Source: Squalus acanthias
Lineage: Eukaryota
Assembly (NCBI GenBank): GCA_030390025.1
Contig: CM059431.1
Location: 149,732,001-149,796,000 of the forward strand
Length of the DNA: 64,000 bases
Direction of reading: 5' to 3'
Part shown: piece by piece, positions 1 through 58,797 of the stretch
Layout of the letters: the number at the start of each line of letters is the position of its first letter
How positions within the stretch are numbered: the first letter of the stretch is position 1
The notes under the pieces: model-generated
Told to the model about the DNA's origin: nothing
What the model saw: the letters and a program-made list of their open reading frames with translations, nothing else
Databases searched by the model: none
Translations under genes and position numbers: made by a program

Positions 1-474
1 TTCCCTTTTCCACCACTAATTCCAACACACACACACTCCCCCTGGGGTCCCTGTGATCGTCCGGTAGTTGTCGTTCCCAGTCAGCTGTATTGTCCCCTAT
101 ATCCATGCTCAGCATCCTGAGCCACCACCACCTATCCAGGGGAATCCGTCCGTTGCATGTGAGAAACACACGTTTCCCTTCAGTGACGCTGACACTTGTA
201 GCAACGACCTGTACCCTGGGGCACGGGATGGAGGCCTCCACGTAGGTGAACCCGGTCTGGCAGGAGTATTTTGCAGAGTTAGACCCTAGCCACCCTGGCC
301 ACCTTCCGTCATGGAAGTAAATAGCCAGCAACTCCACACCTGGTTTGCCACCCCCAGCGGTAACGATCGGCGCTCTCTCTCTCCCGAGCACCCATAAATG
401 TGGGAGTCCTCCACGTCACCTCGGTCACCGATGCTCACCCCTACCAGGGCGAGCAGGAGCAGAACCTTCCTCAT
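1..474 (-). pseudogene. env: env N-terminus of provirus A (signal peptide plus Ig-like domain), frameshifted
   Basis: MRKVLLLLALVGVSIG signal peptide from ATG 474; another frame reads CPRVQVVATSVSVTEGKRVFLTCNGRIPLDRWWWLR, matching CPKVRIIAPRISVTVGKRICLTCSGNVPLSRWWWLR of provirus B env. Confidence 0.88.
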
Positions 475-38060: not shown

Positions 38061-39155
38061 CAAAGAGAGGGATTGAAAAAATATTAAGAAGTTAAATCAA
38101 GGAAAACCCACAATGTTTTATAAATAAATAAAGAGTAAGAGGATAATTAAGGACAGAGTTGGGCATATTAGAGACCAAAAAGATAACCTGTGTGTGGAGG
38201 CGGAAGACATGGGTGTGGTTCTAAAGGAATACGTTGTGTCCGTCTTCACAGAAAAGACGGAGAATGCAGACATTGTATTTATCGAGGAAGTATGTGAAAT
38301 ATTAGATGGGATTAGCATAGAGAGAGAGGAAGTATTTAGAGGTATTGCATCTTTGAAAGTAGATACATCGCAAGGCCGGATGAAATGTATCCCAGGCTTT
38401 CAAGAGAGGCAAGAGAAGTTTGTCTCTGAGTAATTTGATTGCATTTTATGAGGAGGTAACGAGGACGGTTGATGACGGTAGTGCATTAGTTGTAGTCAAC
38501 ATAGATATTAGCCAAGGCCTTTGACAAGATCCCAAAAGACAGGTTGGTCAAAAAAATAAAAGCCCCTGGGATCCAAGGAAAGTGGCAAGTTGGATCTAAA
38601 ATCGGCTCAGTGGCATGAAGAAAAGGGTCGACGGGTGTTATTTCTGACTGGGAGGCTGTTTCCAGTTGGGTTCTACAGGGCTCACTACCAGCTCCCTTTG
38701 GTTCTTGTGGTATACATTGTGGAGCTCAATGTAGAGAACATGATTAATATGTTTGCAGATGATACAACATTGGCCGTTTAGGTGGATAGTGAGGAAGAAA
38801 GCTGTAGACTGCAGGAAGATATCAATGGACTGGTGAGGTGGAAAGAAAAGTAGCAGATGGAATTCAATCCGGAGAAGTGGGGACAGTTCACAAGGCAAGG
38901 AAATGCACAATAAATGACAGGATACTGAGTTTTGCAGAGGAACAGAGGGGCTTTGAACTGCATGTCCATAGATCCCAAAAGTTAACAGGACAGGTAGATA
39001 AGGTGGTTAAGAATGTATACAGGCTACTCCCCTTTATTAGCCGAGGCACACAATATAAGAGCAGAGAGGTTATGCTAGAAAAGTATAAAACACTAGTTAG
39101 GCCACAGCTAGAATACTGCGTACAGTTCTGGTCACATTACAGGAATCTGTGTTTG
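38060..39155 (+). mobile_element. Degraded CR1 ORF2, left of provirus B insertion
   Basis: MFADDT, LVRPQLEYCVQFWS; continues at 51892 (ALERAQWRFTRMLPGL). Confidence 0.85.
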
Positions 39156-40796
39156 TGTAAGGGATTCTGCCCCTGCGTGTCTCGCAGCCTGTGAGATTCA
39201 CGCGGCTCTGTGCAGCCTGTATGTCAGTGCGGGTTTAGGCCTTGTTGCCTGTTCTGGTCTCCAGCCAGTCTGGGAGCACTAGACACACCTGTGAGTGGTT
39301 CGAATCACTCGCCCTTACGGTTCTAGACACTGGACTTAGATGCGAGAGCAGTAATGGAGATGAAACTCATGTAGACTCGGTTGAATGGTACGAAATGGAA
39401 AATCTTTATTGCATGATATTTAAGATTACGAAATACATGTCATAAGCACAGATTAATGACAGTACAATCTTACAAGCAGTTATATAGCTGATCCTAGGGA
39501 AACGAGGAACGAACGACACACCGTAAATAGGGGCACACATTACAAGTATCCTTAATACTTAAACCCTCCCCTATCAATATCTGTCCTAGCTAGATTCGTA
39601 GGATTTCGAGACTCATGCTCACCACTCGTGATAACTCGGAGAAATTCCGAATAGCTGATCGGATGTTTTTCACCGCAGCACCCACGTGTCGGTCAGGAGG
39701 TCTCCTGGTCCCACTTGTTTACTTGCTTCTGCTCCGGCTAGCAGGCTGGACCGTCTGCTGTGATGAAGATCTGTGTTTGTTGGTTTAACAGGCACTTTCC
39801 GAAGACAGCCCAGTCAATATCATCTTTGACGATCCGTTCTTGCAAGTTCAAAGAAGTCTTCCTGGCAAGGAAAACTTGGCTGTTCGACCTACAGGCACGG
39901 TCGGGATTTACTGACCGTGGCGATGAGTATGGTCTTCCTCTCTTCTCATCTCATCTCATCTCATCTCATCTCATCTCGTGCCTTTGGTTCCGATGCCAGT
40001 TACCAACATAGGTCTTCGTTACGCGACACGAGGTAGATCCGAACGGATCAGAAAGTCCAACAGTCTTTTTCAAAGAGGCACCAGGCAAGCAGGAACAAGA
40101 CTACGAGTCAGAAACAGAGGAGCAGCCACGAGGTTACGAGTCGATCGGATAAGAGAATAAGAGAAAGATGGACGGTTGGAGCTTGTAATTATAGTACAAA
40201 ATCTTCCGTTTCCCGCCCAACCTTAATGTCCTTTCTTTTGTTTGAGTTTGGCGCTCAAATGTCTTGTATGGGTGATCTCCGTTCTTAATGGGTTTCGGGG
40301 CTACTCGTAACTGTCTGAGTACCTGTTAATATTTCTCCCATTGTTAAATCGGTCGGTGTTCTCCCTGGAGGGGTTTTGGGGCTTCCAAGTGTTTTGTATA
40401 ACTACCTGCTAACGGCTCTCTCATCGTAGAGTCGTTGGGATTTTACATATTAATGTCTTTTGGATGGGCCCTTGATTACTCGGTACAATAGCTTTCATTC
40501 GTACCTGGGAGACCGATTTCAGTATTTATGTGTATACTGCAAACCCATAATGTCTCGTGTATTATCTTCACTGTGCTGAATCTTAATCGATCTTGCACAA
40601 ATGTTTATTGGAACGCCATCTTGTCTGCCTGTCGAAAAGTCTAGAATGTTCTGTCACGAGGTGCGGCGGCCATTTTACAGGCTGCTTGTGTCCACTTTGA
40701 GAAACCTGACAGCATTCTGCTGAAATAAAAGCTGTTTGAACGAGACTCTGTGTTTTCTCCTTATTAATAAAATCGCGATATATTGCGAATTCTACA
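39156..40796 (-). repeat. 3' LTR of provirus B (1641 bp)
   Basis: Near-identical to 50246-51891; minus-strand AATAAA at 39405-39410; internal (TCTCA)n. Confidence 0.97.
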
Positions 40797-40808: not shown

Positions 40809-41249
40809 GATGCGAATAACTCCGCTTATCGTATCAAAAATCATACTGGTGAGCAATATTATCTCGATTTCTCTCCGAATCCAGCAAATTAATCCCATAA
40901 CTTTAACCTAAATAGGGTCTCCGTGTCGTCCTTATTTCCCAACAAAATTACATTTTATATCACCGTGGGCCTTTATTTGCCCTTAAACTTACACCACTTG
41001 TTTTCCTTCCCGGCGTAACCAGGCCGATGCCTCTCGTATCACCTGTATATTCATCTTTTATTCAGGGAAAGGAAAAAACAAAACCCAAAACCAAACAATC
41101 ATTTTTAACTATAACACCATCACCAAAAATAATCAACACCAACTCTTAAAACATGTCGAGTTCCAAACGTATTTACAGTCTTTGAAAATCATTATCGAGT
41201 ACAAACTTCCGCGGCGCACGTGGCGAGCGGGAATGACGCCATTTTCCGA

Positions 41250-43601
41250 TTACACGGTGCTTTCATCGTGCACGCGCACGTAACGTTCTCGCCACTCTCC
41301 CGTGTTTTCATGCTTGGTGAGGCGTTTGTCTCTTTTACAATGTACGACCAATAGGTACACTACAATAAACACTTGACATACGACTAAAATGTGGGAGGCT
41401 ATTCTGATCCATGAAGGCACTTCAATATTGGTGAACAGATTCCACCACGGTGGAACTACTATATCCAGAATGTCTGTTCCTATTTCGACAGTTTTCTGCT
41501 CTAATGTGTAAAAATGTTTCTGTGACACCGCGACGGCTTTTAAAAGCTTGGTGAGGTGTTCAGGGAGAGGGGGAATGAGGTATCCGAAATGCGCGACGAA
41601 TCTTTGCAAGTCGGTGAAATTCTCTTTTACTGTGAGATGAACAGTGGATGGTTCAGTGATTGGGATAATTCGCTGTTGTGCTACTTGAACTTCCGCCCTG
41701 GGTTCAAAACAGAAACTGTTGTCACTCACCGGACACCGGCTACGGTTTCCATGCTGGTAGTGTTGCGCTGCAGTGGTAACACAATATGTTCCACCCCCGA
41801 TGTATGCTACCTGCGGAGGCACATGATCTTGTGACATTGCCTCCATGGTACAATTCATGGACTTGGCGCCAGTCGTTCTGAACCCGCACTGTGGTGTTAA
41901 AAAGGCATTCAAGTGCTGGGGGCACAGTATTATGTGTGCTCCCCTGCCACGACAACCAGAGAGATCTGTACCTGTCATCGTTTGCTCCCAGCGGATGACG
42001 TAAGGTGGAACCGCTGCATAACGAATGTGGGCTCCCCCCTGAATGACACCAATGTTCTCTACCCGATACACCGGGGCGGGCTTTGCTGTGTCGCCCAAAA
42101 CCGGCATGCGTAAAACTATACCCATAATGGTATGGTTTGATCGTCCGCAGTCCACGGGGACTGGGTATGCTTCTGAAGCTAGCCTGAGCTGGCACGGACT
42201 TAATGCGTTCTGAAAAGGGTGGAGCGCCCGCAGGTGTTTGTTACTTATCCAGGACGGGACCAAACCTTGTTTTAAATCCTCCAAATTACTGCGGCCCTCG
42301 CCCAGTAACCACGCCCCGTAAAGCACGCACACCTCGTTCTGCGCAGCTTGATCGGATGCATTCCGATCTTCCCTAATCAGGGCATTTACCGTCTTTGCAT
42401 GTTTCTCCAGCTCTGCTATAATTTCCTTTAAATGGAGAGTCATGGCTTGGTCCTCATGTAGACCCGACCCTACCACTTTATTCTCATCTGTTAGAATGTC
42501 TTTTAATTGTGTCTTTAAACCATTAATCTGGGTCTGCAGCTCCACACTGTCTAGAGCGTTGACCACAGATGTACCCGTGTTAAAAGCAGTGAACGCATCG
42601 TTCACCAAACCCCTTCTTTGCCTCCCTACTTGATCCAAAACTTCCTGTGGTGCGGTGTACAAACTTGTTTTATCAATTTCCGCGAAATCGAATTCGTAAA
42701 ATTGTCTGAACATCTTGGTCAACAGGACCTGATACAACTGTTCCGTCTTTTTGGGGCACCACTCTGGTAACCGCACCTCGGTGAGATTTAAAATCACCGA
42801 GGCCACCGCGTAATGTACCCCCTGAAATAGTATCTGGTCTGTGGGGACCAGTACCAAACCATTCCCGGGTCCCTTACTAGTTTTAGGGCACCCTTCTTCC
42901 TCAGCTAGAACCACCGGAATCGTGGGAGGGGCTTTGCGTGGGCGCGTAATGAGCTCAGTGGCATTTACCGGGATCGAAGAGTATGGGGCTCCGCACCCCC
43001 TGGTGCTCGCATCCCACCTCATCCCCTGTCCGTTATCCTGCCACTGATTAATGAAAAATATGGATATGCCTTTGGGGCAAGGGTATTTTGACCCCCACAT
43101 GCATACATAAATTCCCTCGTCCGGTTCCCACCATTTGTCCCAACAGACTTTCACTTGTCCGTTTGTCCCCGTAATTGTCCGATGGGTATTATTACCCAGT
43201 CGTTCCCACTCGACCGAAGAGTTCCTCATAGTTTTGCTCAGCTTTCGCAGCCACCACCATCGGCTCAATGGGACATTCCCACTACAAGTCAAACAAATCC
43301 GTTTGCCGACGGTGACGCTGATCCTGGGTGCGATGATCCTTACTTTGGGGCACAGTAAAGAAGTCTCTTGGTAGGCAAACCCCGATGTGCTAGAATACTC
43401 CGTTGAGTTCGTTCCCAGCCATCCTGGCCACCTTCCCTTGTGGAAATAGGTGCTGGTCTCCTCTGCCTCCCGTCTTCCGGTCCCATCCACCGCGATGGGG
43501 GCCGTGTCCCCGGAACATCCAAACACCACGACATCCTTGGTGCGGCCTCGATAGGCCAATCCACATCCGATTGCCGCGAGCAATACTAGAATTCGTTCCA
43601 T
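41250..43601 (-). CDS. env: Envelope / class I fusion glycoprotein (783 aa from ATG 43601) with N-terminal Ig-like domain
   Basis: Signal peptide MERILVLLAAIGCGLA; furin site RQRR (42612-42623), fusion peptide and heptad region; Cys-rich ectodomain; TM helix IASHILVVCQVFIVVYLLVV; short tail; candidate splice acceptor at ~43615. Confidence 0.93.
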   Translation of the reverse strand: MERILVLLAAIGCGLAYRGRTKDVVVFGCSGDTAPIAVDGTGRREAEETSTYFHKGRWPGWLGTNSTEYSSTSGFAYQETSLLCPKVRIIAPRISVTVGKRICLTCSGNVPLSRWWWLRKLSKTMRNSSVEWERLGNNTHRTITGTNGQVKVCWDKWWEPDEGIYVCMWGSKYPCPKGISIFFINQWQDNGQGMRWDASTRGCGAPYSSIPVNATELITRPRKAPPTIPVVLAEEEGCPKTSKGPGNGLVLVPTDQILFQGVHYAVASVILNLTEVRLPEWCPKKTEQLYQVLLTKMFRQFYEFDFAEIDKTSLYTAPQEVLDQVGRQRRGLVNDAFTAFNTGTSVVNALDSVELQTQINGLKTQLKDILTDENKVVGSGLHEDQAMTLHLKEIIAELEKHAKTVNALIREDRNASDQAAQNEVCVLYGAWLLGEGRSNLEDLKQGLVPSWISNKHLRALHPFQNALSPCQLRLASEAYPVPVDCGRSNHTIMGIVLRMPVLGDTAKPAPVYRVENIGVIQGGAHIRYAAVPPYVIRWEQTMTGTDLSGCRGRGAHIILCPQHLNAFLTPQCGFRTTGAKSMNCTMEAMSQDHVPPQVAYIGGGTYCVTTAAQHYQHGNRSRCPVSDNSFCFEPRAEVQVAQQRIIPITEPSTVHLTVKENFTDLQRFVAHFGYLIPPLPEHLTKLLKAVAVSQKHFYTLEQKTVEIGTDILDIVVPPWWNLFTNIEVPSWIRIASHILVVCQVFIVVYLLVVHCKRDKRLTKHENTGEWRERYVRVHDESTV

Positions 43602-43911
43602 CCTTCCTTGGTTCCTGTGATCAGATAGAATGAGGTAGCCAGCCTCGCAAGAGTCTCTGGCTTTTGTGAAGGGTGAGCGGGTCCCCTGACCTCGCCTCAC
43701 GTAAACTTCAACGTTCGCTGAATAAACTTTAACTAAACCTATCTTTAAAGCTCCCATCATTTTATCGTTTTCTGTTAAAAACACTACAAACTTAACCTTA
43801 TTAAAGCTATAAACTTATTCTTAACCTTGGACTATAAACTTAAACTTAAACTATGAACTTAAACTTAAAACTTATTACTGTACAGCACCGCCCGTTCCCA
43901 GGGCGGCCCCT

Positions 43912-46900
43912 TTAAATTCTGAGAAGGCTGCTGCGAGCTCTTCCCGACGGTGGGAGGGCACTGACCCTTCCCTTTGATCTGCCGCAGCCTGTTGCTGCAC
44001 TGATTCCTTCCTCTGATCTGCCGCAGCCTGTTGCTGTTGCGATGGGGCCGGGCTGTATCTGGGTTGCCTTAACCTTAAGTCTACGCCTTGGGGCAGTCTG
44101 GGGACATGACCACATCCTCCTGGGCTGGGGTTCTCTACTTGACCTACGGGGAGTTGCCATGGGCGGGGGTTCCGTGACTGACGGACCGGGTTCCGAGACT
44201 TCCATCGGGACGACCTGGGGTTCCACCACAGTCGCTGGCTCCGCCTCCGCTGACTCCGCCTCCCTAACCTCGGGGCTCGCAGTTTGTGGCTCCGCCCTGC
44301 TCGGCCCAGCAGGCGGCCCTTCACTCGTGATCTCTGCCTCCCCCGAGGACGGGACGTTCAAAGCGGGCAGCTCTGTCTCTGGGGTCCTCACCGTCACTCC
44401 CTGTGCTCCCACAGCGGCTGGCCCCGCCTCCCCTAGCTCCTCCCTCCTGTCTTCGGGACCTGCAGCTTGTGTGTCCACCCTGTGTGGATCTCTATCTGCA
44501 GCCCGTATCCTCCCTATACCTAAAATGGGACCGTTCCCCAAAAACCACTCGTCTTCATCACTATCCTCATCTGACTCGAGTTCCCGGAATTCTCCCTCAT
44601 CTGACTCCCAACCCCACAAAAATGCTTCATGATCTTCCAGGATGTCCCCTCCCCTGATGCAAGCTGCTTTGCCTGCCTGTGTGCCTTGTGGTCCGACCTG
44701 GGGCTGTGCTTCCCCACTGGCGGGGTTTACCCCTGTGGTTTTCCCTTGCACACCTGGCTTGTACAGTTTGCATTGGTTTACGTGGAACCACTTAGTGCGC
44801 CGAGGTACTTTTACGGCGTATACCATGGGACTCGCCTTGTCTACAATGTTGTAGGGTCCCATATACAGTGGTTCCAGACTCCCTACTCTGGCGTAGTTTC
44901 TGACCATGACCTGGTCTCCTACTTCCCACTCCCGCGTTTTGCGGGGTTCCAGCAACAAGCGATTGCCCTGATGCTGCCTTCCCATGTTCCCAGCCGCCTG
45001 CTCATAAACCTGCTTCAGGCGCTCCAAGAGAGTCTGGGCGAACTTGTCCCTGCTTATCTCTTGGAGCTGACCCTCAGTGAGCACCGGCGCTAGCACATGG
45101 GTGGGGGTTCGCATGAGCCTCCCAGTCATCACCTCGTGCGGGGAGTACCCCGTACTTTTTGACTGACTGGCCCGGACCCCCATGAGGACTAAAGGCAGAA
45201 CTTCCGCCCATTTTTGGGGCGAGTTCCTAGTCTCTTTCCTCAATTTCTCCTTCAGGGTCCGGTTCATGCGTTCAACAATCCCGGATGACTGGGGATTGTG
45301 TGCTACGTGCCACTTCCCTTCAATGCCCAAAAGCATGAGGGTGTTCTGCATCACCTGGCCGGTGAAATGACTCCCTTGGTCTGACTCCACAGAACGGGGA
45401 AGTCCCCACCGCGAGAACACTTCCCGGACCAAGATTTTTGCTGTACCCAGTGCCGTAGCTGTTCGACAGGGGAAGGCTTCCACCCACTTGGAAAACACAT
45501 CCACCAAGACGAGGCAGTATTTATAACCTCCCTGGGTGGTGGGCAGGGGTCCTATATAGTCGATCTGTATCGACTGCCATGGTCCCTCTACCCTTCTTAC
45601 GTGTCCCATGGGCACCTTCCTTTTCTGGGGGTCTGGGTTGTTTGCAGCGTTCACAAGACAGTTTGCACAGAACTCGCGGACTTGTTCCCTGAGCCCTGGC
45701 CACCATCCCGCTTGCTCTACCCGTTGCCAGGTAACCTCGAGCCCGGGGTGCCCTGCCCCCGGTCCCTCGTGAGCCAACTGGAGGAATTCCCTCCTGTGCT
45801 GCTGCGGCACAACCCACTGCTCCTCGCGGAACAGCATGCCTTCCTTAACTGAGAGGGTTGCCGTACTGTACGGACCTTCTACCTGCCTCCCCTCAGCAAT
45901 GTTTTTTAGGACTGCTTTTAGGGCGGGATCCTGGGTTTGGACGGTCTTAAGGTCTAGGGGCAATGCTACCCTGGTGTTCCCGGGATTCCCGTCCCTGCCT
46001 TGGATCGCTGCTATGGGTCTGGTCCCATAGGGGTCCCAGAAAATGCCGTTGCGGGCACCTTCCCTGGCTAGCGCATCCGCCTGCTGGTTGCCCTCCCCAC
46101 GGGGCTCTGTGGAGGAGTGAGCTTTCACCTTATGGATGAAAATCTCTCCTTCCTCCCCTACTGCTGCTGCTAAGATCTTTTCCAGCAAGGGCTTCACCGT
46201 TAAAGGTCGCCCGTCCGCGGAGGTGTATCCACGGCGGGACCAAATGGCCAGGTATTCCGTACACGAATTGCAGGTGAACATACTGTCCGAGCAAATCGTG
46301 TATGGGGTTGGGAAAATGTCTGGGTGGGTAACAACGTACACCACGGCAGACAGCTCAGCCTGCTGCGCGCTCATGGTGCTGGGGAGCTTGATCGCCAGGG
46401 CAAGGTTTGCCGCAGGGTCATAAACTCCACACCCCATGAGTCGTTCGCCAGCAGATACTGTGCTAGACCCATCAACATAAATCTCGCGCCCAGTGGGATG
46501 TATCCCGGCCCGTAAACCTATGTTGACGTCCCACTCCCCTTCCACCGAACACCGGTGGGCTGTACCGGGGTATACCAAATTGGCCGCAAGCCTGGGCTCG
46601 CAAAGACCTTTTACTTTAAGATCCATCTGGGAAAGAAGAAGGGTCCAGCGCGCAATGCGCACGCTGCTTACGGTCCCATCTTTAATCGTCCCATCTAGAA
46701 GCATCTTAGTTGGTGTGTAATGTGTGAGGAGAGTGATGGGAGAGAGCCCTGTGAAGATCGCTGATCTTTTCACAGCCCAATGCGTGGCTAAAAGGTGCCT
46801 TTCGCAATTGGAGAAACTTCTCTCCACATCCGTTAACACCCTGGATGAATAGACAACCGGCCTCAGCTTGCCGTGACGCTCTTGGAGCAGCACAGCGCTC

Positions 46901-48432
46901 AAGCTGTCTCCGCTGGCAGCTACCTCCAGGAAAAACTCCTTCCCCCCATCTATGGCCCCTAAGGCTGGCGCGGTCTGCAGATCCCTTTTTAACTTCTCGA
47001 AGGCTGCTTGGCAGCCCTCGTCCCAAGACCACTCCACCCCCTTATGGAGGAGTCGGAGGAGCGGCGCTGCTGTGGCCGCATAGTCTTCGATAAAGTCCCT
47101 GCAGTAACCGCTCAGTCCCAAGAAGGACCTCACACCCCTTATGTTGTTTGGAATCGGTAATTCTTGCACCGACTCCCTCCTCGCTTTGTCTATGGCTCTT
47201 TCCCCAGCGCGTATGGTCAGTCCCAGGAATTTTACTTCCCGCTGACCGATACGTGCTTTCTTAGGATTTATTTTAAAACCCTTTCTCGCTAGCAGCTCCA
47301 ATAACTCGTCCAGTAGTGGTCCATGCTCCTCCCTTGAGTCCGTAAATAGGAGCAAATCATCCACGTACTGCACTATCTGATTGGGCTGACTAAACTCCTT
47401 TAAACTTCCTGCCATACACTGATGGAAAATACTGGGGCTATTGTGGAAACCCTGTGGCAGACAGTTCCATGTGTACTGTTGTCCTTTGAAAGTAAAGGCA
47501 AACTTGTACTGGTCCTCTCGCCTCAGCGGGATGGACCAAAAACCGTTCGAGATATCCAGCACCGTGAACGTGGTCGCGGACGCTGGGATGCTCCCTATTA
47601 GGTCAGCAACTGCTGCTACCGTGGGCGCGCAGGCGGGAATGTTACTGTTAAGGACTCTGTAGTCCACCGTGGCTCTCCACGAATTATCCGGCTTCCTAAC
47701 CGGCCATAATGGGGAGTTCACGTGTGTGGCTATCGGCCTCAACATGCCCTGCTGCACCAAGGAGGACATTGCTGTCTCCATATCGGGTTCTGCTTCTTTG
47801 GGGAAGTTATACTGCTTTTGGGGTCGGGTCATGGGGTCCCCATCTACGCTGACCTCAAACCCGATAACCCTCCCACAATCGTGCTTGTGGGTTGCAAACG
47901 CGTGCATATTATCTGACACGTACGTTTGCATGTCCGTTGGGACATCTGCGACCATAAGCCTGAGGTCGTAGCCTCCGGATGGCTGTACGGTACACAGGAC
48001 CCCTGTTTCTTCCTCCCCCGGACTCACTACGACCTCGCCTTTTTCACCCTTAGCCCCCCAGAGACAGTGATTTCTGAGGTCCACGAGGATCCCGTGTCCC
48101 GATAGAAGATCAGACCCGAGAATACCTCTTCCACCCCCCTCCTGCCATTCCATCAGTATACACTTCCACTTAAGGTGAAGTGCTCCCAAACGAATGGATA
48201 GCGGAAGGGAGAACGCGCCAGCCTGTTCTTTTCCTGTGAACCCCGCTAACGTGAATGGGACCCTGGTAGATAGCGGCGAGTCAAAAGGGCTATCTGTATG
48301 GATTATGGTGCAAGAAGCTCCCGTGTCCAACAAATACCTACCCCTCTGTTTCTCTACCTCCATCTCCACCAAAGGTCGCTTCCACGCATCATAGCTAAGC
48401 GGACACAGGTAGACGGGCTGCGCGGGTTCTAG
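43912..48432 (-). CDS. pol: Pol polyprotein (protease, RT, tether, RNase H, integrase, low-complexity tail), in frame with gag
   Basis: LLDTGAS; LPQGFHNSP; YVDD (47356-47367); IYVDGSS/AQQAEL/SDS/GNQQADALA; H-H-C-C; QIDYIGP/SDQGSHF/VERMN; no internal stop. Confidence 0.97.
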   Translation of the reverse strand, partial: LEPAQPVYLCPLSYDAWKRPLVEMEVEKQRGRYLLDTGASCTIIHTDSPFDSPLSTRVPFTLAGFTGKEQAGAFSLPLSIRLGALHLKWKCILMEWQEGGGRGILGSDLLSGHGILVDLRNHCLWGAKGEKGEVVVSPGEEETGVLCTVQPSGGYDLRLMVADVPTDMQTYVSDNMHAFATHKHDCGRVIGFEVSVDGDPMTRPQKQYNFPKEAEPDMETAMSSLVQQGMLRPIATHVNSPLWPVRKPDNSWRATVDYRVLNSNIPACAPTVAAVADLIGSIPASATTFTVLDISNGFWSIPLRREDQYKFAFTFKGQQYTWNCLPQGFHNSPSIFHQCMAGSLKEFSQPNQIVQYVDDLLLFTDSREEHGPLLDELLELLARKGFKINPKKARIGQREVKFLGLTIRAGERAIDKARRESVQELPIPNNIRGVRSFLGLSGYCRDFIEDYAATAAPLLRLLHKGVEWSWDEGCQAAFEKLKRDLQTAPALGAIDGGKEFFLEVAASGDSLSAVLLQERHGKLRPVVYSSRVLTDVERSFSNCERHLLATHWAVKRSAIFTGLSPITLLTHYTPTKMLLDGTIKDGTVSSVRIARWTLLLSQMDLKVKGLCEPRLAANLVYPGTAHRCSVEGEWDVNIGLRAGIHPTGREIYVDGSSTVSAGERLMGCGVYDPAANLALAIKLPSTMSAQQAELSAVVYVVTHPDIFPTPYTICSDSMFTCNSCTEYLAIWSRRGYTSADGRPLTVKPLLEKILAAAVGEEGEIFIHKVKAHSSTEPRGEGNQQADALAREGARNGIFWDPYGTRPIAAIQGRDGNPGNTRVALPLDLKTVQTQDPALKAVLKNIAEGRQVEGPYSTATLSVKEGMLFREEQWVVPQQHRREFLQLAHEGPGAGHPGLEVTWQRVEQAGWWPGLREQVREFCANCLVNAANNPDPQKRKVPMGHVRRVEGPWQSIQIDYIGPLPTTQGGYKYCLVLVDVFSKWVEAFPCRTATALGTAKILVREVFSRWGLPRSVESDQGSHFTGQVMQNTLMLLGIEGKWHVAHNPQSSGIVERMNRTLKEKLRKETRNSPQKWAEVLPLVLMGVRASQSKSTGYSPHEVMTGRLMRTPTHVLAPVLTEGQLQEISRDKFAQTLLERLKQVYEQAAGNMGRQHQGNRLLLEPRKTREWEVGDQVMVRNYARVGSLEPLYMGPYNIVDKASPMVYAVKVPRRTKWFHVNQCKLYKPGVQGKTTGVNPASGEAQPQVGPQGTQAGKAACIRGGDILEDHEAFLWGWESDEGEFRELESDEDSDEDEWFLGNGPILGIGRIRAADRDPHRVDTQAAGPEDRREELGEAGPAAVGAQGVTVRTPETELPALNVPSSGEAEITSEGPPAGPSRAEPQTASPEVREAESAEAEPATVVEPQVVPMEVSEPGPSVTEPPPMATPRRSSREPQPRRMWSCPQTAPRRRLKVKATQIQPGPIATATGCGRSEEGISAATGCGRSKGRVSALPPSGRARSSLLRI

Positions 48433-50241
48433 TCATGGGGTACTATTACACGGTCCTGTGGCACCTACGGGGCCGGTTGCGACCGCCACCTTTCCATGTG
48501 CACTCAATAGATTGCGCATGGCTCCTAACACTACTTCGAGGTCGTCGGGAGGGGTGGGTGCATTAGCTTCCCTAGCCGGGACAGGCGCCTGGGCTCGGAC
48601 CGCGGGTTTTTTATCCTTGGAATCTTTCCAAGGGTTTCTGCAATGCTTGCGCCAGTGCCCTGTCTTCCCACACCCGTAACAAGCATTACTTGCCTGTGGG
48701 GCGCGATTACCCTCCTGATGCCACTCTCTTTGATACGGGGCTGCGGGTCGTACCTCATGTACTTTTCCCTTAAGGGGACGTGTTGCCATACCCCTTATAT
48801 TGCGATATCCTAACGTGAGTCGATTCAAGACCAACTCTTCCGTAATGTTGGGGTCATTGGGATCAAACCATGCTTTTGCCTGCTCTCTGACGGCTGGTAA
48901 ACTGTTGGCTATTATGCACCTAAGCCAATGAGCTAAACCGGCGCCTTCCACATCTTCGCGCTCGGGCGCACCTAGACAGCTGCGCTCATATACTGGCCAC
49001 AGCCTGTCGGCAAAAACCTTCGGGGGTTCTCCCTCCATCTGCACTGTCTGTCCCACTCTAGCAAACGGACCTTAATCGTCCGCCCCCAACACTTCCAGGA
49101 CCTCATTCTTTAATGCCTCATAAGTCTTGGTTCCCCTCTTGCTCTCGCCTGAGAGACACTGAAGGACCGAGCTGTCTAATGAGAACAGCAGCATTTTTGC
49201 TGTTTCCCCATCATCGCAGCCGTTAATGGCTGCGGCTTGCTCAACTTCTCTGAAATGTACGGAAGGGTCGTCTGACTCAGACAGCTTCCGTACGTGACTG
49301 ATCATAGCCCTCAGCTGGTGTGAGCTGTGAGGCAACACAAGCTGTCCGAGGAGATCCCCTGGTTCTTCCCCACCGTTTCTGTTTGGGCCCCTTTTAATAC
49401 CCGTTACTGGATACAACGGTCCCTTTTCCACTTCTTTCTCAATGGGCTCTTTCGTTTCTTCCATTGCTTCCTCCCTAACCCAGGTTTCCGAATAGCTGGG
49501 TGGCGCGGAGGGCGCAGTGGCTACTACTTCCTCTGCTTTACTTGGTGGGGATTTCTTAAACTTCTCACTTACTAGCGGCTGGTGTGCTGACGGACTGATA
49601 AGGCACACCATGCCGTGCGCTTTGTTCACGGCCTTTTTGAGGTGCTCTATCTCTTTTTGGCAGGTGCTATGATCGGCTCCCTGAAACTTATCCTCAAGGG
49701 CCAACTTATATGCCGCCCTAACCCCCGTTAAGCTCTCTTCCTGAGTTCTTATCAGGGCAGCTTGGCGGGCACATCTTTCCTTTAACCTGCTCTCATTTAA
49801 CTTTGCCTCAGTGACCTGGCACTCGAGGTAATCTATCCTTGTTTTATGGTGACTGGAGATTTCCTGGCGTTCTTGGTGCAACGCACTTAAATTCCTAATG
49901 AGCATTTCCCCTCCAGAAACCTTCTCATCCATTTCTCCCTCTAAATGACTGATTCGAGCTGTTAGCGCTGTAATGGTCTGGTTTGAAATCTGGACCTGCC
50001 TTTTGTAACACATTAGCGAGACTGCTTTCTCGAGTGTCTTTTTATGTTCTTTACTATCTGTCCACCTTTCGGCTGCCTCTAGCGGGCTTTTATCCGCTAA
50101 CAATTCACTTATCCATTTCTTAGTTAGATTAACCTTTCCGAACACATAATCTGCTATATTTTCCTGCATAACATTTCGTACAGTCATTCCAAAGTCTAAC
50201 ACACTACCCTCTCGCTGCCAGTGTCCTGCCGCGGTCGCCAT
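48433..50241 (-). CDS. gag: Gag (coiled-coil N-terminus, PSAPPSY late domain, capsid-like region, CCHC knuckle) with one in-frame TAA at 49072-49074
   Basis: ORFs 49072-50241 and 48433-49056 share a frame; CYGCGKTGHWRKHC knuckle. True start may be a later ATG because the first overlaps the PBS. Confidence 0.9.
50223..50240 (-). promoter_or_regulatory. Primer binding site, tRNA-Arg(UCG)
   Basis: Plus strand GTCCTGCCGCGGTCGCCA equals the 3' 18 nt (with CCA) of vertebrate tRNA-Arg(TCG) as I recall it; 5 nt from the LTR end. Confidence 0.88.
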
Positions 50242-50245
50242 TTTC

Positions 50246-51891
50246 TGTAAGGGATTCTGCCCCTGCGTGTCTCGCTGCCTGTGAGATTCACGCGGCTCTG
50301 TGCAGCCTGTATGTCAGTGCGGGTTTAGGCCTTGTTGCCTGTTCTGGTCTCCAGCCAGTCTGGGAGCACTAGACACACCTGTGAGTGGTTCGAATCACTC
50401 GCCCTTACGGTTCTAGACACTGGACTTAGATGCGAGAGCAGTAATGGAGATGAAACTCATGTAGACTCGGTTGAATGGTACGAAATGGAAAATCTTTATT
50501 GCATGATATTTAAGATTACGAAATACATGTCATAAGCACAGATTAATGACAGTACAATCTTACAAGCAGTTATATAGCTGATCCTAGGGAAACGAGGAAC
50601 GAACGACACACCGTAAATAGGGGCACACATTACAAGTATCCTTAATACTTAAACCCTCCCCTATCAATATCTGTCCTAGCTAGATTCGTAGGATTTTGAG
50701 ACTCATGCTCACCACTCGGGATAACTCGGAGAAATTCCGAATAGCTGATCGGATGTTTTTCACCGCAGCACCCACGTGTCGGTCAGGAGGTCTCCTGGTC
50801 CCACTTGTTTACTTGCTTCTGCTCCGGCTAGCAGGCTGGACCGTCTGCTGTGATGAAGATCTGTGTTGGTTGGTTTAACAGGCACTTTCCGAATACAGCC
50901 CAGTCAATATCATCTTTGACGATCCGTTCTTGCAAGTTCAAAGAAGTCTTCCTGGCAAGGAAAACTTGGCTGTTCGACCTACAGGCACGGTCGGGATTTA
51001 CTGACCGTGGCGATGAGTATGGTCTTCCTCTCTTCTCATCTCATCTCATCTCATCTCATCTCATCTCATCTCGTGCCTTTGGTTCCGATGCCAGTTACCA
51101 ACATAGGTCTTCGTTACGCGACACGAGGTAGATCCGAACGGAACAAAAAGTCCAACAGTCTTTTTCAAAGAGGCACCAGGCAAGCAGGAACAAGACTACG
51201 AGTCAAAAACACAGGAGCAGCCACGAGGTTATGAGTCGATCGGATAAGAGAATAAGAGAAAGATGGAGGGCTGGAGCTTGTAATTATAGCACAAAATCTT
51301 CCGTTTCCCGCCCAACCTTAATGTCCTTTCTTTTGTTTGAGTTTGGCGCTCAAATGTCTTGTATGGGTGATCTCCGTTCTTAATGGGTTTCGGGGCTACT
51401 CGTAACTGTCTGAGTACCTGTTAATATTTCTCCCATTGTTAAATCGGTCGGTGTTCTCCCTGGAGGGGTTTTGGGGCTTCCAAGTGTTTTGTATAACTAC
51501 CTGCTAACGGCTCTCTCATCGTAGAGTCGTTGGGATTTTACATATTAATGTCTTTTGGATGGGCCCTTGATTACTCGGTACAATAGCTTTCATTCGTACC
51601 TGGGAGACCGATTTCAGTATTTATGTGTATACTGCAAACCCATAATGTCTCGTGTATTATCTTCACTGTGCTGAATCTTAATCGATCTTGCACAAATGTT
51701 TATTGGAACGCCATCTTGTCTGCCTGTCGAAAAGTCTAGAATGTTCTGTCACGAGGTGCGGCGGCCATTTTACAGGCTGCTTGTGTCCACTTTGAGAAAC
51801 CTGACAGCATTCTGCTGAAATAAAAGCTGTTTGAACGAGACTCTGTGTTTTCTCCTTATTAATAAAATCGCGATATATTGCGAATTCTACA
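50246..51891 (-). repeat. 5' LTR of provirus B (1646 bp)
   Basis: Near-identical to 39156-40796 with one extra TCTCA unit; TATAAT-like box on the minus strand near 51283-51288. Confidence 0.97.
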
Positions 51892-55229: not shown

Positions 55230-55712
55230 ATCACAATACCAGGACATCGCAGGAGAAGTTCCGCAGGGCAGTGTCCTAATCCCAAACATCTTCAGCTGCT
55301 TTACAATGAGCTTCCCTCCAACATAAGGTAAGAAATGGGAATGTTTGCTTATGACTGCACATTGTTCAGCACCATTTACAACACCTCATATATTGAAGCA
55401 GTCAATGCCCGCAAGTAACAAGACCTGGACGATATTCAGGCTTGGACTGATAAGTGGCAGTCTTATTCGCGCCACAGAAGTGCCAGGCAATGACTATCTC
55501 CAACAAGCGAGAGTCTAACCTCCTCCCCTTGAGATTCAACTGCGTTATAATCACCAAATCCCAAACCATCAAAAGCCTGGGGTTCACCATTGACGAAAAA
55601 CTTGACTGGACCAGGCACATAAATTATGTGGCAACCAGAGCAGGCCAGAGGCGAGGTATTCTGCGGCGAGTGTCTCACCTCCTGACTCCATACAGCCTTT
55701 CCACCATCTACA
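55230..55712 (+). mobile_element. Second partial copy of the same LINE RT segment (matches ~54220-54690)
   Basis: caggacatcg...ccaaacatcttcag...gtattctgcggcgagtgtctca repeated. Confidence 0.85.
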
Positions 55713-56228
55713 AGCACTCCCTCAGTACCGACGCACCGACAGTGCAAAGCACCCTCAGTACTGCCCCTCCGACAGTACTGCTTTCCCTCATTACCGTCCC
55801 TCCGACATGGAGGCGCTCCCTCTGTACTGCCCCTCCGACAGTGCAGCATTCCCTCAGTTTGAAGCCTCCCACAGTGTTACGCCCCCTCAGTTCTGCCCCT
55901 CCTGCAGTGCAGTGCTCCCTCAGTCCTGCAACTCCGACAGTGCAGTGCTCCCGCAGTACTGTCCCTCCAGATATGCTGCGCTCCCTCGTACTGTCCACTC
56001 TGACAGAGCAACGCTCCGTAAGTACTGTGCCTTCGACAGCGCAGCGCTCCCTCAGTACTGCCCCTCCAATAGCGCATCGCTGACTCAGTACAGCCACTCC
56101 GACAGTGCAGCGGTCCCACAGAACTGCCCCTCCGAAAATGCAGCGCCCCCTCAGTACTGCTCCAGCGACAAAGCAGCGCTCAATCAGTACTTCCCCTCCG
56201 ACAGTACAGTGCTCCCTCAGTACTGACC
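55712..56228. repeat. ~33-bp minisatellite CAGTGCAGCGCTCCCTCAGTACTGCCCCTCCGA derived from the SINE core
   Basis: Visible tandem units; monomer matches gacagtgcagcactccctcagcactgc at 35100-35128. Confidence 0.88.
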
Positions 56229-56229
56229 C

Positions 56230-58797
56230 TTCGCGGGCTTTTTTGCAGAGAACAGTGCCGGGAGCGGAGAGAGCAGCAGCACAGTGAGTAGTTAAACTCA
56301 CTTTCGCGGGCTTTTTTGCAGAGAACAGTGCCGGGTGCGGAGAAAGCTGCAGCACAGTCATGATTTAAACTCACTTTCGCGGGCGTTTTTGCAGAGGGCA
56401 GTGTCGGGAGCGGAGAGAGCAGCAGCACAGTGAGTAGTTAAACTCACTTTCGCGGGCTTTTTTGCAGAGGCCAGTGTCGGGAACGGAGAGTGCTGCAGCA
56501 CAGTGATGATTTAAACTCACTTACGTGTGCTTTTTTGCAGAGGCTTACCATTCTCACAGACCGGCGGCAGCGTTCCAGATCCACGTCACAATTCAAAAAG
56601 TGACGTGAACATGAGAAGCAGCTGATTGGGTGAGTACGGCCAGGTGAGTATTTATACTGTTCTGCAGTTTGACAGTTAAGGTTAACAGTTTATAAAGTTT
56701 TATAGATCATAATTTTTGTGGTTATATTTCGAAGGTCTCTGTTGTGTAGCAGGGAGTGCTAGTATCAAGGGCCCTTGAGTGTATCATTTAATTGTAGTGT
56801 CATTTGTGGTATTGATTTGAGTTAATTTAAATTAATGAAAGGAAAAGTCATGGCAGCACAGCTCAGCCCCGTGGCATGCTCCTCATGCACAATGTGGGAA
56901 ATCAGGGACACTTCCTGTGTCCCTGTTGACCATGTGTGCGAGAAGTGTATCCAGCTGCAGCTACTGGCAGACCGCATTGCGGCGCTGGAGCTGCGAATAG
57001 TTGCATACTGGAGCATTCGCGATGCTGAGGATATCATGGATAGCACATTTAGGGAGTTGGTCACAAGGCAGGTAAAGGCTGCACAGGCAGGAAGAGAATG
57101 GATAACCACCAGGCAGAGTAGTAGGCACAGGAAGGTAGTGCAGGGGTCCCCTGTGGACATCCCGCTCTGAAACAGATATACCACTTTGGAAATGGTTGAG
57201 GGAGATGCCTTATCGGGGGAAGGCAGTAGCAGCAAACTTCCTGTTCACCATGGGTGGTTCTTCTGCACAGGACGAGAGGAAAAAGAGCGGGAGAGCTATA
57301 GTGTTAGCGGATTCTATTGCAAGGGGAATAGATAGGCGTTTCTGCGGCCGCAAACGAGACTCCAGAATTGTATGTTGCCTCCCTGGTGCAAGGGTCAAGG
57401 ATGTCTCGGAGCGGCTGCAGGGCATTCTGGAAGGGGAGGGTGAACAGCCACTTGTCGTGGTGCATATATGTACCAATGATATAGGTAAATAACGGGATAA
57501 GGTCCTAAAAGCTGAATATAGGGAGTTAGGAGCTAAATTAAAAAACATGACCTCAAAGGTTGTAATCTCAGCATTGCTACCGGTGCCACGTGCAAGTCAG
57601 AGTAGAAATAGAAGGATATTGCAGAAAAATAAGTAGCGAGAGGAATGGTGCAAGGGGGAGGAATTCAAATTCTTGGGACATTGGAACCGTTTCTGGGGGA
57701 GTTGGGACAATTACAAACTGGACGTTTTGCACCAGGGCAGGACCGCGACCGATGTCCTAGGGGGAGTGTTTGCTAGTGCTGTTGTGGAGGGTTTAAACTG
57801 AAATGGCAGGGTGTTGGGAACCTGTGCAGCGAAACAGAGGAAAGGGAAGCAAGGATAGAAGCAGAAGACAGGAAGGAGAAAAGCAAAAGTGGAAGGCAGA
57901 GAAATCAAGTGTGTAAATCAAACAGGGCTACAGTAAATAATAATTGTAAAATGACTAAGAGTTTTAAAACACAAGCCTAAAGTCTTTGTGGCTTATTGCG
58001 AGGAGCATTTGTAATAAGTTGGATGAATTAGCTGTGCAAATAAATGTAAGCGGATATGATATAATTGGGATTACGGAGGCATGGCTCCAGATGACCAAGG
58101 CAAGGAATTCAACATCCAGGGGTATACAATATTTAGGAAGGACAGTCAAAAACGAAAAGGAGGTGGGGTAGCATTGCTGGCTAAAAAGGAGATTAACACA
58201 ATAGTAAGGAAGGATATTAGCTTTGATGATGTGGAATCTGTATGTGTAGAGCTGAGCAATATCAATTGGCAGAAAAAAATTAAGTGGGAGTTGTATACAG
58301 ACCCCCAAACAGTAATGCTGAATTTGGGTATGGCATTACACGGGAATTAGAGACGCGTGCAATAAGGGCACAGCAGTTATCATGGGTGACTTTAATCTAC
58401 ATACAGATTGGGCTAACCAAATTAGTAACAATACTGTGTGTATGGAATTCCTAGAGTGTATACGGGATGGTTTCCTGGACCAATATGTCGAGGAGCCAAC
58501 TAGAGATCAGGCCCTCTTAGACTGGGTATTATGTGATGAGAAAGTAGTAATTAGCAATCTTGTTTTGCGAGGCCACTAGGGGAGGAGCGATCATAATATG
58601 ATAGAATTCTTCGTTAAGATGGTGAATGAATTAGTTGACTCAGAGACTAGGGTTCTGAATTTAAATAAAGGGAACTACGATTGGATGAGGCACTAGTTCG
58701 CTAGGATGGATTTAGGAGCGTTTCTTAAAGGGTTGACGATGGATAGGCAATGGCAAACATTTAAAGATCGCAGGAATGAACTAATGAATTTGTTTGT
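56230..58797 (+). mobile_element. CR1 LINE 5' portion: 73-bp tandem repeats, 5' UTR, ORF1 (zinc finger plus SGNH/esterase-like) and start of ORF2
   Basis: CSSCTMWE...CEKC zinc finger; VLADSIARG, CLPGARVKDV, VVHICTNDIG; ORF2 IARSICNK, MGDFNL; 3'-truncated. Confidence 0.92.

Follow-up and report, generated by a model that had tools for sequence, protein, structure and literature searches.

A probable immunoglobulin-like module at the N-terminus of an F-type retroviral envelope protein in Squalus acanthias

The fusion (F) protein of paramyxoviruses starts its core right after the signal peptide and depends on a separate attachment protein. Here we describe an envelope protein (Env) in which a core predicted to be F-like is preceded by a further module, encoded by an endogenous retrovirus (ERV), provirus B, in a 64,000-nucleotide stretch of Squalus acanthias DNA (GenBank assembly GCA_030390025.1, contig CM059431.1, positions 149,732,001 to 149,796,000 of the forward strand; this whole stretch is the window, and all coordinates are counted within it). 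The env open reading frame (ORF) lies on the minus strand at 41253..43601, encodes 783 amino acids (aa) and ends in a stop codon at 41250-41252. The F proteins of parainfluenza virus 5 (PIV5), human parainfluenza virus 3 (hPIV3), Nipah virus and respiratory syncytial virus (RSV) (4wsg, 2b9b, 1ztm and 5evm) have a fold like that predicted for Env aa ~237-730, and have in common with it an internal furin-type site, a hydrophobic fusion peptide, long heptad helices and a C-terminal transmembrane (TM) segment. They differ in that there is no detectable sequence similarity between the two, and in that this Env has about 215 extra N-terminal residues with an immunoglobulin (Ig)-like domain among them.

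F has been described, in the available part of Fernandez et al. 2024 (PMC11468914), as a minimal scaffold that accepts modules for receptor binding, either N-terminally, as in the coronavirus spike, or inserted, as in foamy virus (FV) Env. [quoted passage not shown] FV Env gp130 (subclass Ib) is likewise a retroviral Env with an F-like core, and the Env of feline FV was returned as a structural match to ours (E 3.2e-5), but here the module is N-terminal and stands behind an ordinary signal peptide. Lokiretroviruses, as set out in the available part of Wang & Han 2021 (PMC7947760), have lower-vertebrate hosts, a dual RNase H and an Env related to the F of Mononegavirales, modelled with a signal peptide, an RXKR site, a fusion peptide, a coiled coil and a TM segment and linked to F by sequence (PF00523, E 2.2e-7). 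That sequence link between Env and PF00523 is absent from our protein, whose likeness to F is structural only.

An Ig-type sandwich is also known as a viral receptor-binding platform in the V-like core of herpes simplex virus (HSV) gD and in the Ig-like beta-sandwich of gammaretroviral RBDs. HSV gD is made separately from gH/gL and gB, which it triggers, and the gammaretroviral RBDs lack the sequence signature of the Ig superfamily (IgSF) and are borne on a gamma-type (subclass Ia) TM subunit. The Env described here differs from both in that a module with a Cys-Trp-DxGxYxC signature is fused to an F-type core.

Sequence and predicted structure of Env

Our best overall explanation, to which we give a probability of about 0.6, is that Env is an F-type fusion protein with an N-terminal Ig-like receptor module. 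The reverse complement of 43095-43352, read in frame 0, gives Env aa 84-169, CPKVRIIAPRISVTVGKRICLTCSG...RWWWLRK...QVKVCWDKWWEPDEGIYVCMW, in which a preliminary description of the window, made from the sequence alone, had recognised an Ig signature. This proved correct, in that all the canonical positions are present. The first cysteine is Cys106, in '..CLTC', and Trp115-117 stand 9-11 residues after it, where the C-strand Trp of an IgSF domain is expected at about 10-15 residues past the first Cys. The D-x-G-x-Y-x-C motif of the E-F turn and F strand is represented by D161-E-G163-I-Y165-V-C167, and the 61 residues from C106 to C167 fall inside the range of about 55-75 that is typical of the IgSF cysteine pair, so that these two would be the canonical core disulfide. 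The domain has four further cysteines (84, 103, 153 and 175) and two internal N-glycosylation sequons, at N127 and N137. A regular expression for the signature, G-x2-h-x-h-x-C-x(8-16)-W-x(30-60)-D-x-G-x-Y-x-C, finds a single match in the six frames of the window, at 43101-43307, and none in 100 block-shuffled windows or in 20000 shuffled Env proteins. We place a V/I-type Ig-like domain at aa 88-190 (43032..43340, minus strand).

Searches with this region point the same way. The sole Pfam family matched on Env aa 88-167 is Ig_3, whose E-value falls from 0.48 with the whole Env to 0.082 with the N-terminal 250 aa and 0.018 with the domain by itself. Ig_3 also matches 7 of the 51 family members described below when these are scanned whole, and 6 of 8 of their N-terminal domains at E<=10 (best E 0.0015); the alignment behind the latter scan, A3, brings together close and distant N-terminal domains, is poorly aligned by MAFFT and was used for this per-member Pfam scan only. 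A phmmer search of Env against PDB sequences returned 12 matches at E<=10, ten of them antibody V domains or the junctional adhesion molecule JAM; these ten all lie on aa 80-177, and the remaining two in other parts of Env. When a profile of six Ig regions from skate, shark and the same genome (A4) was searched against PDB, the IgV domain of CRTAM came out on top (E 0.022 and 0.038), with profile positions 11-102 aligned to 7-97 of the 101-aa chain, followed in third place by DIP-eta; the remaining three of the six matches are unrelated. Among neighbours by ESM features, all those that have a family are Ig, at 0.88-0.90 for Env and 0.83-0.87 for its relative P0010, which we treat as a lead only.

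For a calibrated test we compared the Env Ig profile, using hhalign, with a profile built from 30 genuine Ig_3 exons of host genes in the same genome. This gave a score of 24.8 (P 4.4e-4) over 73 columns, a score reached by none of 300 column shuffles (mean 11.5, sd 2.6, maximum 22.3), and the reversed control gave P 0.96; the profile-profile similarity to IgSF is therefore beyond that of the controls. A global-style alignment of the same profiles (90 columns, P 0.0036) puts C106, W117 and DxGxYxC on the host columns of the B, C and F strands, respectively.

Structure prediction with AlphaFold2 (AF2) was carried out on Env aa 1-235 with a 9-row alignment, giving a mean predicted local distance difference test (pLDDT) of 38.7, and on full-length Env with 51 rows, giving a mean pLDDT of 61, the N-terminal 235 aa again being low. 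The strand pattern is alike in both runs, with strands at 94-96, 101-107, 116-121, (133-135), 141-146, 149-155 and 161-169, and there is an additional predicted strand at about 180-183. Strand order and spacing fit A'-B-C-C'-D-E-F-G. Comparison of the low-confidence model with 48161 chains by VIA-align found 926 chains at Z>=2, and the best 50 rows are nearly all Ig V-type by title (antibody V, CTLA-4, CD28, CD8, MPZ, butyrophilin, pIgR, IgNAR and titin). The top rows have Z 4.1-5.0 and a root mean square deviation of 3.2-5.8 A over 76-107 aligned residues, and at least a fifth of the rows span model residues 85-183. A predicted Ig fold was the check proposed in the preliminary description; the weak model aligns mainly to Ig V domains, but the confidence of AF2 was low twice. 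With Pfam, phmmer, the profiles, hhalign, ESM and VIA-align in agreement, each of them individually weak, an Ig-like domain here is nevertheless the best reading, and we consider it probable that Env aa ~88-190 adopt the Ig fold.

The remainder of the N-terminal extension surrounds this domain. A predicted signal peptide, MERILVLLAAIGCGLAY (aa 1-17, 43551..43601, minus strand), appears in the AF2 models as a hydrophobic helix at 2-12 or 2-17. It is followed by a segment of aa 18-87 (43341..43550, minus strand) that is conserved in alignment A1 (GCSG..API, GRWPGWLGSNST.YSS..GFTY), with G63, N65, S66, S70 and Y77 invariant in nine sequences. This segment has no family match, its pLDDT is below 50 in both AF2 models, and it may be either part of the same head as the Ig-like module or a separate small domain. 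Behind the Ig-like domain comes a linker, RPRKAPPTIPVVLAEEEGCP, of aa 191-236 (42894..43031, minus strand), with Cys203, a sequon at N213, a short Pro-rich stretch and pLDDT below 50. A linker had been described ahead of the F-like core as Pro-rich; it is there, but is only mildly so.

The fusion core itself divides in two. The F2-like part (aa 237-330, 42612..42893, minus strand) starts with C-P-x(5-10)-G-L (Env C238), a family-wide motif that marks the start of the F2-like core, and ends in the furin-type site RQRR (aa 327-330, 42612-42623), where cleavage is predicted. RQRR directly precedes the hydrophobic fusion peptide GLVNDAFTAFNTGTSVV (GLVNDAFTAF...), which opens the F1-like fusion subunit (aa 331-783, 41253..42611, minus strand). 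In the AF2 model this subunit has long helices at 349-444, beta-rich domains at 477-645 and a helix at 681-713, ahead of a TM segment at about aa 731-755 (41337-41411) and a short tail. The N-terminal extension that holds the Ig-like domain, about 215 aa in length, thus belongs to the F2-like subunit.

The assignment of the core as F-like is well supported by predicted structure. Many 10-residue blocks of the AF2 core have a pLDDT of 80-94, and a Foldseek search of the Env model against PDB gave 226 matches at E<=1e-3, headed by PIV5 F (4wsg_B, E 1.9e-11) and followed by the F proteins of hPIV3, Nipah, Hendra and Langya viruses, RSV and human metapneumovirus; paramyxo- and pneumovirus F dominate the best 40 of the 226. 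Among the viral models of BFVD there were 53 matches at E<=1e-3, of which the best named are the Envs of walleye epidermal hyperplasia virus 1 (3.9e-15) and walleye dermal sarcoma virus (4.0e-11), along with arli-, lispi- and filo-like glycoproteins, baculovirus F, paramyxovirus F0 and the feline FV Env mentioned above. The predicted model has the domain I-II-III fold of F-type proteins with nested parts of the N- and C-terminal subunits, together with the furin-type site and fusion peptide, the heptad helices and the C-terminal TM segment, so that the earlier view of the rest of Env as F-like holds. At the level of sequence, PF00523 (Fusion_gly) gave no match to Env at E<=10 in Pfam, nor was it one of the 25 most-matched of 50 families when the 51 family members were scanned at E<=1; one family member matches Baculo_F (E 0.0011), and a whole-family profile (A5) run against PDB sequences found no F protein, its best match being the TM subunit of human endogenous retrovirus K (HERV-K) Env, at E 0.032.

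Relatives of Env and distribution of the module

An exhaustive phmmer search of Env against 1.84 billion representatives identified 51 proteins at E<=1e-3, to which a second, word-based family search added only five new fragments. The relatives that we looked up come from a skate (Rhinoraja), from sharks (Pristiophorus, Chiloscyllium, Scyliorhinus, Heterodontus and Mustelus), from the coelacanth and from frogs (Xenopus, Mantella and Pelodytes). The Ig-like module occurs at 49-76% identity in the skate and several shark entries, and in two further sub-lineages of the same genome as the window. One shark relative, P0013, bears the automatic UniRef name 'Ig-like domain-containing protein'.

Other members of the family differ at their N-termini. 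P0036, from a Logan contig, has a V-set-like N-terminal domain of about 155 aa, for which Pfam V-set gives an E of 0.045 on the whole protein and hhalign against host Ig a P of 6.3e-6 over 63 columns. Combined, P0020 and P0048 from frogs match host Ig with a P of 0.0049 over 70 columns, with the canonical residues aligned. In the shark relatives P0012 and P0023 the N-terminus is rich in Cys and gives no signal against host Ig (P 0.27 and 0.28), and P0039, also from a Logan contig, goes directly from signal peptide to core, being 38% identical to P0036 over the F-like core. Judged by their sequences, then, different lineages of the Env family carry a different N-terminal module, or none, and the Ig-like module occurs beyond this provirus but not throughout the family.

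The window also holds the start of a second env, in provirus A (P0004, 2..391, minus strand), whose gene runs off the window start. As the preliminary description had it, the motif is kept there, as VSVTEGKRVFLTCNG...RWWWLR at 193..116 of the minus strand, but only its front half is in frame: the frame is broken after W-E-R, tblastn finds the env pieces in three frames, and only strands A'-C of the Ig-like domain are retained in frame. The further statement that the domain is conserved in both proviruses therefore goes too far for a copy that is both frame-broken and cut by the window edge.

Some of the public gene models among the relatives (P0002, P0003 and P0040, from Pristiophorus japonicus and Heterodontus francisci) have pieces of Env fused to host genes, namely a ZFP2-like zinc-finger protein, a Niban 1-like protein and an fbxo15 isoform. 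Such fusions are probably artefacts of gene modelling where ERVs have inserted.

Function and origin of the module

The mechanism that we propose is as follows. Env would be a class-I fusion protein of the paramyxovirus F type, made as one polypeptide and cut at RQRR330 into F2-like and F1-like subunits, with about 215 residues added to the N-terminus of the former. Within this extension, residues ~85-190 would form a V/I-type, IgSF-like beta-sandwich, with the C106-C167 core disulfide, the C-strand Trp, an F strand bearing D-x-G-x-Y-x-C and two extra cysteine pairs. Tentative pairings are 103-153 and 84-175, along with 203-238. This exposed, glycosylated and conserved module would bind the receptor, and binding would release the metastable F-like core for fusion. 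Env would in this way share the design of an F scaffold plus N-terminal receptor module with the coronavirus spike, as that is presented in the available part of PMC11468914. Provirus B has a single env gene, and its ORF list contains no second glycoprotein gene; because there is no separate attachment protein, the N-terminal module is most likely the receptor-binding unit. We put a role of the N-terminal extension in receptor binding and triggering, which is argued by analogy, at even odds.

The domain may, instead, be Ig-like but not a receptor binder. It could serve as a cap or clamp, or as a glycan shield, of the prefusion head, or as a surface for immune modulation or interference, for instance through contact with a host IgSF partner, with attachment residing in aa 18-87, in aa 191-236 or in the core. 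This would accord with the position of sequons N127 and N137 inside the domain, with the strong conservation of the flank at aa 18-87, to which no fold is assigned, and with the existence in P0039 of a core that has no N-terminal module. It would also accord with the invariant columns between lineages, by which the loops of the Ig-like domain are about as conserved as its framework, unlike a fast-evolving receptor interface. Between lineages the synonymous rate (dS) is saturated; amino-acid identity between them is 0.52 for aa 1-87, 0.65 for the Ig region, 0.48 for the linker (the lowest in the ectodomain), 0.71 for the F2-like part and 0.80 for the F1 ectodomain. Within one sub-lineage (pairs L044/L045 and L045/L046) the ratio of nonsynonymous to synonymous rates (dN/dS) is 0.13 and 0.11 for the Ig region against 0.32 and 0.31 for the whole Env, but such low values are compatible with any function and do not discriminate a binder from a non-binder. 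A retrovirus with a single env needs its attachment function somewhere, however, and the N-terminal position on an F scaffold is the very site at which the available part of PMC11468914 places the receptor modules of the coronavirus spike. We therefore regard a non-binding role as unlikely, and prefer that of an Ig-like receptor module.

That preference has to be weighed against a number of results that tell against it. No similarity test passes a conventional threshold, the best PDB profile E being 0.022, and the Ig_3 score of 11-17 bits lies below the gathering cut-off of 30. The ESM pattern in which all ten neighbours share a clan arises for a third of shuffled proteins. In both AF2 runs the pLDDT is 50-58 on the Ig strands and below 50 on the loops, Foldseek gave no match at E<=1e-3 for the N-terminal model, and among its weak rows cohesins stand alongside antibody V, titin and Dscam domains; VIA Z values no higher than 5 are common for this comparison. 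Among the relatives, the match of shark P0013 to host Ig covers 12 columns only, P0039 is a family member without any N-terminal module, and the Env Ig profile gives no significant match to the frog or P0036 N-terminal domains (P 0.16 and 0.19).

These sub-threshold scores, the low AF2 confidence in both runs and the Foldseek result would all be expected if the region were not an Ig fold but a Cys- and Trp-rich viral beta region in which a chance Ig-like motif had drawn all the weak matches, and the WWW and WDKWW runs and the four extra cysteines are indeed atypical of IgSF domains. Such a coincidence seems improbable to us, since the motif was found in none of the 20000 shuffled Env proteins and the profile-profile score in none of the 300 shuffles, with an alignment that spans the whole domain rather than a few residues, since independent searches (Pfam, phmmer, the A4 profile, ESM, hhalign and VIA-align) all point to Ig, and since the order and spacing of the AF2 strands fit those of an Ig domain. 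An F-type Env with a genuine Ig-like module remains the explanation that we favour.

The last possibility, that a host IgSF exon was captured recently and fused to an F protein, as the term 'captured' in the preliminary description implied, is very improbable. In its favour, an Ig domain usually occupies one exon and lends itself to capture, and a canonical IgSF signature suggests cellular ancestry at some time rather than a merely Ig-like viral sandwich. Against it, there is no host IgSF protein among the 51 phmmer matches of Env, and every match that extends over aa 88-190 also has flanks specific to Env. A profile of the Ig region, searched among longer proteins, found six matches that are all Env-like, with no host IgSF protein (weak evidence in itself), and skate and several shark lineages already have the module, at 49-76% identity. 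Searches of the same genome were saturated by thousands of ERV copies, so that host genes were not visible there. With no host IgSF protein among the matches a recent capture is unlikely, and the Ig-like module is likely to be old in the virus lineage. Only the IgSF signature hints at an ancient cellular origin for it. Given that the Env Ig profile has no significant direct match to the frog and P0036 domains, the Ig-like modules of the family may go back to one ancient origin or to repeated independent gains.

A broader proposal can be put forward tentatively, as possible. Ancient vertebrate retroviruses with F-type cores may have gained attachment through exchangeable modules on the N-terminus of the F2-like subunit, the module in the skate and shark lineages, and perhaps independently in frog lineages, being a true IgSF domain, derived from a cellular one, with a host IgSF protein or another surface molecule as its partner, and sister lineages having an unrelated Cys-rich module or none.

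The provirus, its classification and significance

Provirus B occupies 12.7 kb on the minus strand of the window. Its 5' long terminal repeat (LTR; 50242..51891, minus strand) and its 3' LTR (39152..40796, minus strand, identified against 50242-51891), both placed by blastn, are 98.85% identical over 1650 nucleotides (nt), a divergence of 1.15%. The gag region (48433..50241, minus strand) comprises two ORFs that share a frame, with an in-frame TAA at 49072-49074 between them, and the second of them contains a CCHC zinc knuckle. The pro-pol ORF (43912..48372, minus strand) encodes protease, reverse transcriptase (RT), a tether RNase H-like domain, RNase H and integrase (IN), according to Pfam. 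Gag, pro and pol form a single reading frame of 2110 codons, from 50241 to 43914, with a TGA at the gag-pol boundary (48433-48435, next base C) that predicts a readthrough layout in the gamma/epsilon style; the TAA inside gag is one further in-frame stop of this copy. The C-terminus of Pol after the integrase is an acidic, Pro/Ala/Glu-rich, low-complexity tail of about 280 aa (43912-44740, minus strand) with no Pfam match.

Several of these features bear on the classification of the virus. The RT matches those of murine leukaemia virus (2.9e-68) and foamy virus (PR-RT, 7.4e-65) about equally well in PDB, ahead of Ty3 (6.4e-41), and the best PDB match of the IN is the prototype foamy virus integrase (4e-32); foamy viruses, however, have a gag-pol layout unlike the one frame with an intervening stop seen in provirus B. 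Pol has a dual RNase H (RT_RNaseH_2 at aa 450-538 and RNase_H at aa 630-773 in Pfam), a feature common to all retroviruses. Epsilonretrovirus Envs (Q9WHI8 and A4GTG3) are the best named viral structural neighbours and likewise have fish hosts, but at 1159-1317 aa they are longer than the 783 aa here and gave no sequence-level match in the exhaustive phmmer search. In-frame gag-pol stops are listed for gamma- and epsilonretroviruses in the available part of PMC3542737 as UAG-R, against UGA-C here. The virus looks gamma/epsilon/spuma-like in its gag-pol layout, in the match of its RT and in the named structural neighbours among viruses.

The label 'lokiretrovirus' used in the preliminary description is, by comparison, doubtful. 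Relatives of this Env do occur in the coelacanth and in frogs, which are lokiretrovirus hosts. They also occur, however, in Chiloscyllium punctatum, one of the Orectolobiformes, an order in which none of three screened genomes was positive for lokiretroviruses according to those parts of the PMC7947760 supplement that a word search reaches. The missing PF00523 match and the gamma/epsilon-like gag-pol likewise speak against the label.

The ERV family is extremely abundant and young in this genome. A first search with the Env N-terminus (42897-43601) gave 6057 first-look candidates, of which 150 were scored; all of these are 98-100% identical, and 78 of them belong to open frames of 840 aa or more. 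A second search of the same genome gave 5236 candidates, and the 150 scored include sub-lineages that are 74-87% identical to provirus A, among them intact env frames of 782-788 aa that are 69-70% identical to the Env of the window. In sequencing runs X1 and X3, whose type is uncertain and which are possibly RNA, the contig word-depth of env is about 95-430 against about 16-60 for most of pol (41000-43780 against 43781-48400), and in run X9 env and pol are broadly alike in depth, save for isolated peaks and one empty bin; the contigs showed no joints. The higher env depth in X1 and X3 could reflect subgenomic env RNA or env-only copies, and is not evidence of expression. About 3.8 kb beyond the end of the 5' LTR (51891) two tandem arrays adjoin each other at 55698-56594, one of 13 copies at 33-nt spacing and one of four copies at 73-nt spacing.

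As the preliminary description had supposed, the architecture appears to be undescribed: no account of an Ig-like module on an F-type retroviral Env was found in the papers searched on lokiretroviruses, shark ERVs, paramyxovirus-like Envs and the Env of walleye dermal sarcoma virus. The word 'immunoglobulin' is absent from the main texts of both lokiretrovirus papers, of a 2026 review of ERV structure, of a preprint on errantivirus Env and of a preprint on modelling of the surface subunit, and in the available main text of PMC7947760 'N-terminal' and 'receptor' are absent too. What appears to be new is the F-type retroviral Env with an N-terminal IgSF-like module; F scaffolds with receptor modules were already known.

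Proteins of the F type (subclass Ib) are known as bare fusogens that need a partner, in paramyxoviruses, with large N-terminal receptor domains, in the coronavirus spike, and with an inserted RBD, in foamy viruses. A 783-aa Env with one Ig-like domain before an F-like core would be the simplest version so far of attachment plus fusion, and would offer a tractable system in which to study the gain and exchange of receptor modules. Recognition of this Env family would also clean up the annotation of the fused public gene models. The thousands of near-identical copies and the many open env frames raise the question of whether the virus is infectious now or was so recently. If the broader proposal is true, the family would provide a natural series from a bare F fusogen to a self-sufficient attach-and-fuse protein, within a virus family that is still replicating, or was until recently, in cartilaginous fish.

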